A program made the position numbers and the translations under genes. Below, piece after piece: positions 39,209 to 59,792 of a stretch of 64,000 bases of DNA; the first letter of the stretch is position 1, and each line of letters starts with the position of its first letter. The notes beneath the pieces are model-generated. The model ran no database searches. It saw only the letters and a program-made list of their open reading frames with translations, and had not been told where the DNA came from. This DNA comes from Balanoglossus misakiensis (lineage: Eukaryota; Animalia; Hemichordata): positions 3,702,349-3,766,348 of the forward strand of contig CM082586.2 in the NCBI GenBank assembly GCA_040954595.2, written 5' to 3'.

Positions 39209-40230
39209 TCAAAACCTTGCCTCTCTTACTTTAGCAGATATATTCTTAAGAACTTCCGATTTGGTGAAATCAATACTGGCGTAGTTACTGTCTGCCTTGT
39301 CATCACTTTCTGAAGTACGTCTGAGCGGTGAGCACGGCGACCGCGGAGATCGCGGCGAGCGGCTTTGCCCGTTTTCGTCCGGCTCCTCAGTGGGCCCAAG
39401 ATCTAAGGCAATATAGTTCAGTTTGGGCTCTGCTGCAGCGCCGAGTGATGCAGTCGCGGACTGCGGCGGTTCGGAACTCAGCGCTGCAGCCGCCCCGGCG
39501 CCGGGGAACTGCAAATTAAGATAGTCACTGCTACTTAAAGTCTGCTGCGAAGCACTGTCTGATTTCTCAGCTTTGGGGGGTTTGGGTAAAGGCAACGAAC
39601 TTGGACTCAGACTAGCTGCTTTGCTCTGGGGCACGCCCGAAACCTTTTGCTTCGGCGCGTCCTTGGTTCCCAGCTCCACGTTCATATATTCTTGGTACTG
39701 AGTAATTTTCTTGTTGGATTTTGGCATCCTCGGGGAGAGACTGGGAGAAATTTTTGGCGAAACTTTGGGTGATTTCTTCTGCTTGACATCGAGATTAACA
39801 TTGACGTACGACCTTTCGTCGGCCGGCAGAGGAAGTCTTTGCGGCCGTGGAGAGGCATTTTCACTCACTGCCAAACCTTGAACTCTGGACATATCCATCT
39901 GGGCATAATCGCCAGCGTTTTGTGATTTCTTTGAAAGGTTCACGTTCATATACTCGTGCTTATCACTCGTCGTTTGGCTGACCCCCAGTTTATTTTCAGG
40001 TTTCGGTGGCTCGGGGGCTTCGTAACTCATAGGCATGTACGTGTCTACAGTCTTAGCTGTCTTTTGGGATGTGCCCGTCGGGTACACAACTTTCGGTTTG
40101 ACCTCCGAACTGGCATGGCTGTGTGTTGTCTTCACTGCGGCTTGGTGTGGATCGCCACCTCCACTACCCGGCGCAAAACTCATATACGAGTCCAGTTCCA
40201 CTGAGTTCGGCTGGCCGGCAGCGCGCGTTT
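39209..40230 (-). CDS. IRS: IRS terminal coding exon (tyrosine-motif tail)
   Basis: Acceptor ttacgtttcAG, phase 1, 340 codons to TGA. Contains YMPM, YAQM, YMNV x2, YVNV, YLNL and the IRS C-terminal SHP2-type motifs LNYIALDL and NYASIDF. Confidence 0.95.
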
Positions 40231-46103: not shown

Positions 46104-46247
46104 CTTAGAGGACTGTTTGAAACGGGTGGAGAGTGTGACATGGGCTGAGATACAGACCGTGATATGATGGTGTGCGGGCGCAGGCGGCCAATGTTGGGAC
46201 TGCTTCGTGGCTGACTCCCTATCGTCCTGGATCTCGACTTGCTGGGG
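46104..46247 (-). CDS. IRS: IRS exon (144 nt, phase 2-2; Ser/Arg/Pro-rich)
   Basis: tttctttcttgacAG / TAAG|GTGAGA; PSKSRSRTIGSQPRSSPNIGRLRPHTIISRSVSQPMSHSPPVSNSPL. Confidence 0.88.
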
Positions 46248-46440
46248 CTGTCAAGAAAGAAAAAAAGACGAGAAGACGCAGGAATAAGAACAAACATTGA
46301 GGGTTTTTTTGCCTTCGACTCTGACACTCAAACCACCGAAATGATACATGTCAAAAACAGCAATGCACATAGACATACAAGCCTGTCAAAAAAATTAAAG
46401 AGAGTGAAAAGAGGAGAGAAATTCTAAAAACGATAAATAT

Positions 46441-46631
46441 TTAAAGGTAAACGGTCACCCCTTGTTTACATATGCGTGTATATAGTCAAATGGACGTGAA
46501 TAAGTCTTCATATGACCTGTGGTGGCGCACTTCTTTTGCATCTGCCACCAACTGAAAATCTGTAATTCGCTATATTTTGATTTTCCATGGTAACCGTGGT
46601 TAAGTGTGCATAGGTGACCGTGTACCTATAA
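46441..46631. mobile_element. MITE with ~15-bp terminal inverted repeats and TTAA-like flanks
   Basis: ttaa-aggtaaacggtcacc (46441-46459) ... ggtgaccgtgtacct-ataa (46613-46631). Confidence 0.7.
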
Positions 46632-47025
46632 ACTGTCTAATACATGAAACTCAACAAAAAAATATACAATATAATTTCTCTGACGTCAATATTTGGCAGT
46701 AAAGTTTGGCTACACAGAATGACATAAAAGCAAGAATTCATCATTAATGCTGCGACAGCACAAGGAGGCGACATGGGTCAAACACCTTGACAGAATGTTA
46801 ATAGATTTTATTAAAATAAAAGAACAGAGAGGATATTTTAGAGCCAATATTAATGCTTCTACTGCAGGTTCACATTCAATACTTCAAAGCTAAAACATTG
46901 GGTGAGCAACAAAAGCTGAAGAAAGCAAAGCAACTGCCAACCCAGACCTTTGAAATCCCCAAACCCAACAAATTTTAATTTCTCCTCTAAATTTTCATAA
47001 CACAATGCGCAACAATGGGGTCACA

Positions 47026-47113: not shown

Positions 47114-48058
47114 ATTAATATATATGTACTAGACAACAGTTGGAACACCTCCTGAAAGGCGTCAATTGATAAGTGGGAATTTTTATAAATACTGCAAGAG
47201 TTTATAATGGTAATGTATAAGTACTTACGACACAATGGTGTATATGAATGCATGCAATGAAAGTTGTATAAACATTTTAGAATATAAGTAGACGTAACTA
47301 TATTATACATTTATTTATCTACATGTAAGATTGTTATTTTCATCATGAATAAGAGATTCATGGACACATGTCAACACGAGCATTTGAACCAACTGGGATT
47401 CAGATCGGAGTCGTCCATGAATATCGTAGCAGCTCTCAATAATGACAAGAGTGATCCAGAACTGTTGCATGGTTATTACGGCCAGGTCAAGTTAACGGTC
47501 AAAGTGGACAGCGATCGTTAAGGTTATATAGTCATTCCCTTTCATTCTACTCATGCATCTCTCTTATTCTTGTCTTAACATTTTTGTCTACTTTTAAGTA
47601 CTAATGATGCGTTGAGATGGACAGTGAGATGGATGTAAGTGATAGTGTGAATGTGATGGTGGTACTGCAACACTAATGGTCTTTACAACATGCCTGTGTT
47701 TTTACAAAATTAGAAATGACTATGTTATGGATGGAATATGGTTGTAGGCATAGTTTAAGGCATGACAAAATTGCTTCACCACACAACTAACCTACGTCTA
47801 AACGAAAAGGCAAAACTGAACTGTTCCTTTGCAGACCGTGAAAAAAATATCTCCAAACCTACTGACACTAACTACCATGCCATCAAATATGCAGTGAAAA
47901 CAAAATTTACAAGAATTAAAAGTCTTCAGGGATTCATATACAGAAAAAAAAACTGAAAGAAAAGTAGATCTTAGTTATTTCCTAAAGATCTGCACACTGA
48001 GGTCAGGTGACTGCAAAATAGATCATGTGATTGTCATGTGGCTAAAAATGTAACAAAC

Positions 48059-48139
48059 CTGTCTGGATGACTGCCGCGGAAGTGTTTGTCACCTTCGCTG
48101 CTCGTCCGTGGTCGGAATCTACTTCCAAGTTTGAAAATA
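48059..48139 (-). CDS. IRS: IRS exon (81 nt, phase 2-2; FRPRTSSEGD)
   Basis: ccttccttttattcAG / ACAG|GTTTGT; IFKLGSRFRPRTSSEGDKHFRGSHPD resembles IRS1 FRVRASSDGE and IRS2 RVRTASEGD. Absent from the ORF track. Confidence 0.88.
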
Positions 48140-48727
48140 CTGAATAAAAGGAAGGACGGATATTAACAGCCAGTCAGTTAAGCATGCCGAGGCAGTATTA
48201 TGGGATGGCTTTTCGGTCGTCCTGACAACTGTTGGTCGCCGGGCAACTTACACAGTGAGGGGCGCCATCTCCCACTCATGCATCACAGTCAGGACTTGAC
48301 CTCATTTGCATAGGTCAGATCAGGTCATTACCACAGCAACAGCATGCAAAGCGTTTGGATAAGCAGTTCAGGAAAGACCGGAATGTGAAAGAAAAATGGA
48401 AAAAAAGGAAGTATGAAAGAATCAAGACAGAAGAATGGTATTTTCGTGTTAGTGGTTATTTATTTGTTACGTTTATCATTAAAGCTTGATGCAGGCCAGC
48501 CATGATTCATGGATGACGTGTGCACTTGGTGGTGTGAAGGAATAATAAAAAAAATTAAAAAGTGGGTTGCAAACTTTTCAAAGAGTTTGGAACCTCAGAT
48601 TTAGGGAAAAAAGTATGGGAAACTAGCATAAATTTGGAATAGGAAACAGACTCAGTAGAAATACATAGGTCTTTATGAAGGTAGAATTTTTTTGAAAAAA
48701 AAAAAAGAAACTCTACGACATAATCAC

Positions 48728-48826
48728 CTTGAGGCGGCCATCTTGGCTCGGATTTGACCTTCGCCCTCACTGCACGTCCGAGGCCTTAAGATGCCCAAGA
48801 ATAAATTCCGGGGAAGGCTGTTACTA
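48728..48826 (-). CDS. IRS: Candidate alternative/duplicated IRS exon (99 nt, phase 2-2; LRPRTCSEGE)
   Basis: First AG after a 482-nt AG-free zone, donor CAAG|GTGATT, open frame SNSLPRNLFLGILRPRTCSEGEGQIRAKMAAS, paralogous to the 48059-48139 exon. Confidence 0.7.
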
Positions 48827-49348: not shown

Positions 49349-49569
49349 ATTCTTGCTACCTTAAATAGGTGTTTGCTTTGTGTTATGGGGTCAAATCCCA
49401 TTATGATAATTGCATTATGGGTAAAAAGGTCAACAACAACTCAAGCGTTATATTCTGCTACAAAAATTCAGTATGACCGAACACTAATTTACCTTCTGAA
49501 CTTCTGTTGACCTCATGAGATTTTTATTACTCACCTAGGTAGCAAAAACCTATTTAAGGTAGTGAGAAT
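49349..49569. mobile_element. MITE-like element with ~29-bp inverted ends
   Basis: attcttgctaccttaaataggtgtttgct (49349-49377) versus the reverse complement of 49541-49569 (3 mismatches). A related single end lies at ~52571-52640. Confidence 0.65.
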
Positions 49570-51255
49570 CACCTGAGCAGCCCACTCACTCCAGCAATGA
49601 AACACCCAAGTCTGCATTTTCACTCGATGCTGTTGCAAATTTGCCAAACTTGACGACTTTGGAATTCGGCTAAATGGAATTCCCAGGTCATTGAATTTTT
49701 ATCACGTGAACATAACAGCCAATCAGAGTGGCAGATGCATTCAGCACATGAGTGACATGTTTTCAGACACAACACATACATAGACCACATGACAATCACA
49801 TTTCAAATTACTGGCAAACATTACTATGAGACTAAGGGGGGGAGGGTTAATATAATATCATAAGAAACACCATGGCAAACACAAAACATATTAACACATC
49901 AATCACATGACCAACATAGGAATCACATGGGGCTACATCATGTGCAACATGAAGAAAAGCACCTTAACCTACACCATCACTATGTAACACATGGAAGATT
50001 TCACAGAACTACATGTATGTTGTATGTGCATGACAACATTTTGTGATGCAAAGGTGAATCGCACAGGAAAAATTAAAGATTTATTTATTTAAACACAACT
50101 AGTACGTGCTACAATTATCACATGAAACTGAAGTACAGAAAGTGTGTCATGCAACATTAAGATGCCATGGAATGTTAAAAAGTTTGTTGCATGACATGGT
50201 AACAAGCAACATAACATAATGTGTGAAAGAGTCAAGTGGTGCAGTAGTGTGATATAGTTATTCAATCATTTGCATTCCACACATGATGTTAGCAGGACAT
50301 TGTACGATGGCACATTATCGCTGTATGACTAGAACACAACCAACCAATGCAACATGAATTGACACAAGGCACACCACAAACCACATTTCACTAGTTTAGC
50401 TCATTATGAACCAAAGCAACATCACTTCATGTCCTTTAAACTCGAAGACACACTGAGATGGACTTAGCCACTTCAACTAACATTCTTAGCGCTGATGGCA
50501 AACCCCTAAACATTTGCCAACCGGGTATTTCCCACCCAGCGGAGGGGACGAGGGGGGCAGGATAGGGAAGGGTACATCTGTACATGTCTGGTGGCTAAAC
50601 GTTACAGGGACAAACATTCTAGAACCAGTTATGTAGCCACACAACTAGATCTTGTTGACTTGGCGGCGCTGACACTACATACAGTGTATGTGAAACAAAT
50701 GTTGTTTAAGCTGACGCGATAATTATGGAGGTGGAAGAAGAGAAGCTATGCTTATGTCTTTATGATTCTATACATGACCGCATTTTGTATACAACTGAAT
50801 TTTTATTAACCTTCCATCATGCACTCGAACATATCGTTCGTTATGGGACTTGATCCGTGTATTGCAAAATTAGGAAAGTTATTTTACGAATGAACACCAT
50901 AGGTGTAAGCAGTAGGTGTATATATGGTGTCGGATACTGTGAAATACAGCGGCAGAGCAGATCACCCGATTCCTAGGACTGCAGAAGTGGTCGCGTGTGT
51001 ATAATCACTGTGGCAGCCATTTTGTTTGCGTGTTCACTGTGCAGAGCTGTACAAAGCCATGCTTTTTGGCATGTGCGCAATATGTACACCGCAGGCACAT
51101 CAAAACTGGTATAAAAAAACAAAAAAACAAGCCCACACTTCTATTGGGAGATCTATGTTATATTACACGTACAATAAAACTCATATTTCATGAGCACATG
51201 CACAGTATATCATGCAGTCAAAGACGGTGTACCAGAAAAAAATGCATGCACTCAC

Positions 51256-51489
51256 CTTCCCGGGCTACGGTCACCCCTGACCTCCTCTCCACGTCCCAAC
51301 ATCCGCGAATGCGCTGGCATGCTGTCACACCTTGTGCGACTCAACCTGTTGGCCATAGAGGGCACACTTCCGGGGGTTCCCGGTCGCCTGGGTACTGATA
51401 TTGGATTGGTCAGCTCTGGGTTGGTTGCACCAGTACTTCGACTGCGGGGGCGCATGTCGTCATCTATATGACTCATGTTCCTCATGGCA
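51256..51489 (-). CDS. IRS: IRS exon (234 nt, phase 2-2; end of PTB helix and RxRxxS motifs)
   Basis: gaaacttcAG / GAAG|GTGAGT; AMRNMSHIDDDMRPRSRST...TNPISVPRR...RTRCDSMP resembles IRS1 AMRAMSDEFRPRSKS...SNPISVP...RSRTES. Confidence 0.93.
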
Positions 51490-52309: not shown

Positions 52310-52452
52310 TTGAGGATTGACTCATGCATATTTTGGGCAATGATGGTGTCTTCAACAAGCATCCACAGTTCGCCGGCACCAGTAACTGCCGAACGGCCAA
52401 CTTCCATGAAAAAGTAACAGTCTGAATGTCCACACCGTCGTATACTACTCAA
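52310..52452 (-). CDS. IRS: IRS PTB domain exon 2 (143 nt, phase 0-2)
   Basis: tttcctgttgcAG / TCAA|GTAAGA; [47 protein letters not shown], close to the IRS1 PTB core [44 protein letters not shown]. Absent from the ORF track. Confidence 0.97.
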
Positions 52453-53103
52453 CTGCAACAGGAAAAAAATTGTGGGTCAATTTTATATCTGTTTTTGAAT
52501 AACAGAATGCAAATACAGCATAATCCTTTTTTGAGCAGTAAGACTATAAGTGTATACAGAGGCAAGAGGGATGCTGCTACCCTAAATAGGTTTCAGCTAA
52601 CTAGACCAGTAATAATAAAAATCCCACATGGTTGACAGACGATGACACATTTCTGCCATGGTAGTTCAAGCTTTAATAAAAAAATAACCAACTCCCTAGT
52701 TCGACTGCACTTGCTTCTCTTGACACATATTCTTTTTTGGCTTGCGCTTGGGGCTCTAAGCTAAACTTCATAGTTTTCATCAATTTGTGACATACTTTCG
52801 GAACTACGCCTTCAGCAACCATGTCGTGACATTTCTTGGCCCCTTGTTTTTAATAGGGTCGCTGGACTCGTTAACAAGGAAATGGGGTAAAAGGGGTTAC
52901 ATTCGTCATCCCACTGAGCTCTAAAAATGACATTCATTTTCTGATACCCGGAAATGGCACAGATCTAGTTCAAAGCTATCAGTGACCTGACTTCAAAGGT
53001 TGGAAGTCTTTCCTACATGAAGTTGCAGTTCAGTAGTCAATAAAAGAAAGATGGGGTTTATTTTTCAACGAACAAGGCATTTATGAAAATATTGAAATCT
53101 TAC

Positions 53104-53243
53104 TGGAAAAACCATGTCTTCATTTTCTACATTCATCTTGACGAGGTTGAGTGTTGTTGACGTCAGACACAATCTGTAGGACCCTGTTACATTCTTGCTG
53201 CTTCCCAGACCGCGAGCCTTCAGCGTTACTTGCCACACATGCT
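53104..53243 (-). CDS. IRS: IRS PTB domain exon 1 (140 nt, phase 1-0)
   Basis: ctttattttttAG / TCCA|GTAAGA; EHVWQVTLKARGLGSSKNVTGSYRLCLTSTTLNLVKMN resembles IRS1 EVWQVILKPKGLGQTKNLIGIYRLCLTSKTISFVKLN. Confidence 0.97.
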
Positions 53244-54826: not shown

Positions 54827-55154
54827 CTCTGCTAGGAACTCGAACAGGTGGTTCCGTCAGATGTCCATGACTGTACGCCGGATTGATGTAGTCACCGTCC
54901 TCCGGGATGACCATGGAGATGTCACACGACCACACACTCAACGGCCGGGGCTTGGCGCTCATCTGTCGCGCCCCGTACAGCTGCGGGCAGCTGGCGCGCC
55001 GGTTCGCCAGGTACTTATACCTCTCCATCGCCGGCGCTGAGGTGGGCATTTCGGGAATCGTCTCTAGCCGCTCCTGTGTTGCTGCTGGTGGCGTGTTTGA
55101 CCTTGATTTCCGTCGCAGCGCGGACAACTTCTTCCACAGACTCTGCGTACACAT
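54827..55154 (-). CDS. IRS: Candidate alternative first coding exon of IRS (109 codons, PH-less isoform)
   Basis: ATG at 55154 with an in-frame upstream TGA and no acceptor tract. GC-rich open frame. Donor AGAG|GTACAT in phase 1, matching the PTB exon acceptor at 53243. Contains RRAS and DGDYINP motifs. Confidence 0.72.
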
Positions 55155-59482: not shown

Positions 59483-59792
59483 CGAATGCTGGTTGGAGCG
59501 GCAACCCTTCCTTGGATCCAGACTGTTGCAACTTCAACATGGCCATCAACCAATCCTCTTGCTCCTCAGCTGTCTCCGCGGAAACGGAGAAGCACTCGTC
59601 TCGGGTGTACAGAGCCACTACATTTTTTTGTTTAGAGTCGGCCTTTTTGTTGATGTTGAAACAAGTACTGATAACAATGCACCTCTTGGGGGCACAATTA
59701 GTGCGAAATTTCTTCTCGTTGTCATAGTACTCCAATCTTGACGGGCCAGACTTGGTTTGGGACCGGAGAACGAAATATTTCTTTTTCATTGT
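59483..59792 (-). CDS. IRS: IRS PH domain exon (310 nt, phase 0-1); upstream first coding exon not found in the window
   Basis: ctctctttctgttgcAG / TTCG|GTAGGT; TMKKKYFVLRSQTKSGPSRLEYYDNEKKFR...CFNINKKADSKQKNVVALYTRDECFSVSAETAEEQEDW resembles the IRS1 PH domain (RLEYYENEKK...CFNINKRADSKNKHLVALYTRDE). The 11 exons sum to 2607 nt in one frame. Confidence 0.97.

Follow-up and report, generated by a model that had tools for sequence, protein, structure and literature searches.

Two optional exons bearing an Akt/S6K-type phosphosite motif in the IRS gene of an acorn worm are probably independent cassettes

Two short neighbouring exons of an acorn worm IRS gene carry almost the same serine motif, RPRTCSEG in exon A and RPRTSSEG in exon B. 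Does the IRS mRNA take one or the other of them, as a preliminary description of this DNA proposed, or can it take both, and what would the number of copies mean for the protein? We addressed this in a 64-kb window, the whole stretch of DNA analysed (64,000 nucleotides), and in the IRS records of related animals.

The minus strand of the window contains an IRS gene whose coding exons span 59792 to 39209 (Table 1). Both domain matches were above cut-off; PF02174 matched PTB exon 52310-52452 at E 2e-10, with exon 53104-53243 alone giving no match. The two PTB exons were identical to those of Ptychodera flava at 44/46 and 47/47 positions. The last exon showed 68% identity to P. flava IRS (237/339) and 47% to Saccoglossus kowalevskii IRS, which places the acorn worm closer to P. 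flava; its six matches were all named IRS, from these two species only. The translated tail contains the YxxM motifs YMPM, YMEM, YVNM, YMSM and YMDM. Thus all the family features of IRS were found: PH domain, IRS-type PTB domain, YxxM tail and best matches to IRS. The frame from 59792 to 39209 has no stop with A, with B, with both or with neither.

Other variation was seen in the same gene. An alternative first coding exon (MCTQSLWKK...) lies at 54827-55154 (minus strand) in the intron 3' of the PH exon, and its use as a start would yield a PH-less IRS. Its N-terminus is matched in P. flava X10, X13, X15, X17, X18 and X19 (60/109 identical); it has an RRAS motif and a YINP motif and no Pfam match. 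P. flava isoforms have an alternative acceptor for E7 6 nt downstream (PDSPSK versus PDSK), which an AG at 46243-46242 of the window fits, and an 18-residue segment of the P. flava E7 region, RSVSQPMSHSPPVSNSPL, is optional among isoforms.

Table 1. Features of the IRS locus in the 64-kb window
Feature	Position	Strand	Remark
PH-domain exon	59483..59792	-	PF00169, E 4e-9
Two IRS-type PTB exons	53104-53243 and 52310-52452 (span 52310..53243)	-	PF02174
Exon E5, upstream of A	51256..51489	-	end of PTB region; RPRSRS and RTRCDS sites
5' arm of perfect 17-bp inverted repeat, E5-A intron	49785..49801	-	
Possible 5' extension of A	48785..48826	-	candidate; in-frame acceptors 48817, 48823, 48826
Cassette exon A, short form, 57 nt, phase 2-2	48728..48784	-	(R)PRTCSEGEGQIRAKMAAS; acceptor serine codon 48771-48769
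Two TGCATG hexamers, A-B intron	48277..48348	-	
Branch-point-like sequences, -42 and -38 from B acceptor	48172..48181	-	pattern match only
Cassette exon B, 81 nt, phase 2-2	48059..48139	-	IFKLGSRFRPRTSSEGDKHFRGSHPD; acceptor serine codon 48099-48097
3' arm of the same 17-bp repeat	48025..48041	-	17 nt past B donor
Exon E7, downstream of B	46104..46247	-	
Last coding exon of IRS gene	39209..40230	-	similarity search

Exons A and B are 588 nt apart and both have GT-AG sites; the coordinates, phase and spacing first given for them stand. Their cores are identical at 18/24 nt; four differences are synonymous and the others are C/S and E/D, again as described before. The C/S difference falls at position -1 and therefore leaves the acceptor serine intact in both exons. 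When the B core was slid over both strands of the window, A was the sole 18/24 match and the next best were five places at 15/24. RxRxxS[ED]G occurred twice in the six frames of the window, once per exon. The match widens to 25/39 nt (RPRTCSEGEGQIR versus RPRTSSEGDKHFR), a shared stretch of 13 codons only, and similarity 5' of the motif is nil (A-B -2.7). B has a second RxRxxT motif overlapping the first (RFRPRT), which is seen in hemichordates.

The acceptor of A has four in-frame AGs (48826, 48823, 48817 and 48784). The preliminary description placed it at 48826, which is indeed an in-frame AG but just one of the four, and the records of relatives match 48784: this is the start in P. flava X3, X6, X8 and X13 and in S. 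kowalevskii XP_077870342. With acceptor 48784 the Arg at -5 of the motif is built across the junction, from the AG of the upstream exon and one G. The longer A acceptor of P. flava lies 15 nt 5' of 48826, at a place without an AG in the window. All lengths of A (57, 90, 96 and 99 nt) and of B (81 nt) are multiples of 3. Compared with P. flava, 18/18 residues of short A, 24/26 of B and 30/32 of long A (in the long-A isoforms) are identical, and the first two figures bear out the earlier claim of selection at the protein level. B is identical to S. kowalevskii at 21/26 residues. The exons flanking A and B match P. flava at 72/77 and 44/47 residues, and the last exon is lower.

Conservation of both exons in relatives had been left as a check, and the pair is present across hemichordates and echinoderms: in two hemichordates, sea urchins, sea cucumbers, sea stars and a crinoid. 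Over 20 copies of A and B, drawn from 10 species, 6/8 core positions are invariant, and all 20 fit the R-x-R-x-x-S/T consensus. Judged by this conservation, the A/B feature is real, old and functional.

Outside these two phyla the motif was found as a single copy in 36/36 outgroup invertebrate records (amphioxus, brachiopod, molluscs, crab, chelicerates) and in 81/83 vertebrate-type matches, of which one other had none and one had an unrelated distant second match. Of 150 family representatives 137 were anchored; 80 had one copy, one (a sea urchin) had two, and 56 had none, these being fragments, skipped forms or divergent members. Each representative is one isoform, so there is room for optional copies elsewhere. 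A motif scan of 52 metagenome loci gave no exon pair; L003, L044 and L047 had a single motif each, in L044 and L047 in frame with a preceding RxRxxS site. Record P0033 (KAI8483713.1), an IRS protein of Branchiostoma belcheri, carries the name 'Isoleucine--tRNA ligase', apparently a mislabel.

A third, degenerate copy is located upstream of both cassettes in echinoids, holothuroids and two sea stars. The upstream copies have lost Thr at -2 (0/6, versus 19/20 outgroup sites). Pro at -4, kept in 19/20 A and B copies, is found in 5/20 outgroup sites and 0/6 upstream copies. No intact upstream copy was found in hemichordates and crinoids, and hemichordate E5 lacks an intact RxRxxSE, so the hemichordate isoform skipping both cassettes is without any copy of the site. 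We infer that constraint shifted from the constitutive copy to the optional ones. The hemichordate sequence HSRMLGRG may be a dead relic of the ancestral site, or the site may have been deleted; HSRMLGRG fits the chelicerate spacing, and it aligns with the echinoderm linker too.

At positions +3 to +7 the mean BLOSUM score is 2.6 for A against B, versus -3.0 and -3.1 for A or B against 20 outgroup sites; over the core it is 35.6, versus 27.7 and 29.5. A and B are thus closer to each other than to the outgroup sites, which favours duplication, although the sequences are related and the comparison is no formal test. The homology of A and B is beyond chance, with the short sequence leaving room for convergence. 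The second motif might instead have arisen convergently, or have been copied separately from E5. The core is a short linear motif that most animal IRS proteins have once (80/137 scored representatives), echinoids, holothuroids and two sea stars have the degenerate upstream copy, and the 3' end of E5 in the window can be aligned in register with B (24/56 nt). Such origins would not lead one to expect the Pro at -4, the +3 to +7 residues, the phase and the adjacency that A and B share, and we consider them very unlikely. A tandem duplication in the last shared ancestor of the two phyla is the likely origin of the pair.

How the two exons are combined was read from annotated isoforms of relatives. 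These are automated gene models, non-quantitative, which may chain junctions; the sample was 57 records from 13 named hemichordate and echinoderm species plus six further assembled sequences. A+B was annotated in 24 records, B only in 21, neither in 10 and A only in 2 (Anneissia X3 and Asterias X2). A+B was the commonest state and occurred in 12 of the 13 named species. All 19 RefSeq isoforms of P. flava comprised nine A+B (five long A, four short A), six B, four with neither and no A-only; the Saccoglossus records were one B and one A+B. Among echinoderms both cassettes were present in Strongylocentrotus, Lytechinus, two Diadema, Holothuria, Apostichopus, Anneissia, Acanthaster, Patiria and Asterias. 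Sea-star counts are from partial sets (three Acanthaster, one Patiria and two Asterias records of more existing), and the 'neither' record Acanthaster X6 skips downstream exons too. Fragments short of the region were excluded (P0136, P0137, P0143, P0145-P0148, P0150, P0151, P0154-P0156, P0160, P0170, P0171). The sea urchin records P0138, P0139, P0152 and P0023 have an extra optional 18-residue segment upstream of A, aromatic-rich and with one Cys, of which the E5-A intron gave no homologue (its highest score was 14, against 25 at the best-scoring place in the rest of the window).

The six further assembled sequences covering the region were all B-only, which suggests that B-only is the usual form, with A as an add-on. 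Together with the absence of A from two Antedon records, this might make A a rarely used relic without function. A relic would hardly keep a near-invariant core in 10 species of two phyla, nor a short form identical to that of P. flava at 18/18 residues when the last exon has 237/339, and we give this reading almost no credence.

The same counts bear on mutual exclusivity. Adjacent exons of the same phase and similar sequence are the typical anatomy of mutually exclusive pairs, as set out in the sections of PMC6071210 drawn on here; A and B have this anatomy, and the two A-only records would suit a pair of this kind. However, inclusion of one and only one exon was not the rule in the 57 records of relatives: A+B accounted for 24, with A+B models in 12 species, which, though automated, is unexpected for a mutually exclusive pair, another 10 had neither, and P. 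flava had A-only in 0/19. The mechanisms that could enforce a choice were likewise not found at this locus. Co-inclusion and double skipping would cause no frameshift or NMD, all A and B lengths being multiples of 3. A steric block is not evident in an A-B intron of 588 nt whose nearest branch-point-like match is about 170 nt from the A donor, with candidates close to B at -42 and -38. The donors gtgatt and gtttgt both belong to ordinary GT-AG introns, with no U2/U12 mismatch. Docker-selector pairing of the internal intron with the flanking introns was within the null (16/100 and 8/100 nulls as strong). The A+B models largely refute the mutually exclusive reading already, and we regard it as highly improbable.

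The introns contain one element that joins the two sides of the pair. The arms of the 17-bp repeat (Table 1) bracket A and B, and their predicted pairing would loop out both exons together. A perfect 17-mer repeat appeared in 2/1600 Markov simulations of the region, and in the 11 other 5-kb tiles the longest inverted repeats measured 11-15 bp, with a single exception, a short hairpin of 20 bp. The helix has a predicted energy of -28.9 kcal/mol, with 0/60 null pairs as strong, and it is part of the MFE fold of the 1971-nt region with a pair probability of 0.43. Two-strand prediction stretches the helix across the B donor, and the whole-region fold drops this stretch. Since the helix would loop out A and B, its geometry fits the 'neither' state and not a docker-selector choice. 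It may be a control element promoting the skipping of both exons, a possible role that we put forward tentatively for a helix known from one species. Another helix between the left and right introns (13 bp, -23.3 kcal/mol) was within the null range.

TGCATG, which we take to be an Rbfox-type element, is found twice in the A-B intron versus 0.24 expected (1/300 shuffles), a weak signal as this is one of 12 introns tested; counts of YCAY and TGCATG over the 12 introns gave weak, uncorrected signals only. Three further TGCATG are located at 51197-51250 (minus strand), within 60 nt of the E5 donor. The E5-A intron also has a 29-nt inverted repeat (90%) at 49349-49377 and 49541-49569, 163 nt apart and unique in the window, and a similar 20-nt inverted pair lies at 46440-46459 and 46613-46632. 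These repeats (49349-49569 and 46440-46632) are possibly small transposon relics or local hairpins.

The motif of A and B is of the Akt/S6K type and lies just after the IRS PTB domain, in a region outside the PH and PTB domains that is likely disordered. The preliminary description had recognised the motif type and the position after the PTB domain, and the match to human IRS2 S365 and IRS1 S330 agrees with it. In the sections of Kearney et al. 2021 (PMC8277355) used here, these human sites have the same R-x-R-T/A-x-S-E/D-G motif (IRS2 S365, RVRTA[S]EGD; IRS1 S330, RVRAS[S]DGE; both read by translating the supplementary mutagenesis primers). They occupy the corresponding place, following the PTB domain and an RxRxDS site, and belong to a cooperative set of Akt-motif sites. 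R-x-R-x-x-S/T is the consensus used there for Akt/S6K sites, and phosphorylation of this site by Akt/S6K is demonstrated in those sections for human/mouse IRS2 S365 only. Mutation of all Akt-motif sites blocked the release of IRS from the membrane, the effects of single-site mutants were subtle, and the cooperation involves two sites or more; the key IRS2 feedback sites are S306 and S577, not S365. Such cooperation fits a model in which the dose of sites matters, yet the site is not dominant alone.

The isoform that skips both exons retains the three other RxRxxS/T motifs of the region, so that the change in dose would be partial. Ser325 of IRS-1 is presumably equivalent to human S330. It is listed among serines raising IRS-1 signalling in the portion of PMC3275635 consulted, so that the site might act on signalling in either direction.

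The site had also been labelled as being of the 14-3-3 type. The 14-3-3 mode I consensus has Pro at +2. All 20 A and B copies have Gly there, which argues against a canonical 14-3-3 site. Of the earlier interpretation, coding potential, selection, the post-PTB position and the Akt/S6K-type motif are supported, and mutual exclusivity and the 14-3-3 label are not.

The explanation that we consider probable is that A and B are two independent cassettes, of which a transcript may take both, one or neither; splicing would thereby set 0, 1 or 2 Akt/S6K-type feedback sites through four frame-keeping combinations in the IRS mRNA. The serines of both exons would be phosphorylated, feedback would release IRS from the membrane more strongly when more copies are present, and the 17-bp long-range RNA helix would promote skipping of both exons. 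The consistent differences between A and B at -1 and in their flanks would suit a difference in kind no less than one in dose. A could then still be an independent cassette but a different module, with its own kinase or partner preference or with a reactive Cys beside the serine. Position -1 is C, Q or R in A (6/3/1 of 10) versus S or A in B (6/4 of 10), and the Cys is kept in hemichordates, echinoids and holothuroids; B has conserved flanks of its own (mean BLOSUM at +3 to +7, B-B 14.8 versus A-A 3.6) and, in hemichordates, the overlapping RxRxxT. However, the Cys is not universal (sea stars have Q and the crinoid R), and the flanks of A drift freely so that the shared core alone is fixed. 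We think a qualitatively different A unlikely.

The independent cassettes can also be set in a wider picture, which taken as a whole is speculative and somewhat doubtful. Ambulacrarians may have moved a family-wide IRS feedback site from the constitutive protein onto two optional exons, as a dial of Akt/S6K feedback strength (0, 1 or 2 copies; up to 3 in those echinoderms that retain the upstream copy), kept since the phyla split and switched off by the long-range helix.

Like the mutually exclusive tandem exons of Dscam, 14-3-3zeta and srp, as far as the sections of PMC6071210 drawn on describe them, and like those of ATE1, A and B are adjacent, similar, of the same phase and accompanied by long-range intronic complementarity. 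Unlike the Dscam-type pairs of those sections, both or neither are possible in the records of relatives, and the A/B helix joins the left and right introns, bracketing both exons, in contrast to a docker with internal selectors. Like the Fgfr alternative exon in the text seen of Burguera et al. 2017 (PMC5703972), A and B belong to a gene of a receptor-tyrosine-kinase pathway and are conserved in both echinoderms and hemichordates; the Fgfr exon is extracellular and dissimilar to its neighbours, whereas A and B duplicate an intracellular phosphomotif. A term search of PMC5703972, in the text available, and its six supplement files did not find IRS by name (genes given by id only would be missed), and 'intron' and 'exon' were absent on a term search of the available text of PMC5482937. 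Both exons are already in the RefSeq IRS sets of P. flava, S. purpuratus, L. variegatus, A. japonicus, Anneissia and Acanthaster as automated predictions, and the record names seen for these sets are silent on duplication, conservation and the phosphosite. We found no description of these exons in the open literature, subscription papers and splicing databases being outside the scope. Vertebrate-type IRS has one copy of the site (81/83); the acorn worm has two, on optional exons, their phosphorylation predicted from the motif.

Serine feedback on IRS lies at the heart of insulin resistance. What sites such as IRS2 S365 contribute is not settled, and here natural isoforms would differ solely in the copies of that site. 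That the arrangement has been kept in two phyla speaks for the importance of the site and for regulation of its copy number. The pair would be a clear case of a tandem exon duplication resolved into additive cassettes rather than a mutually exclusive pair, and in sea urchins and sea stars the proposed dial could be tested with existing RNA-seq and splice-blocking tools.
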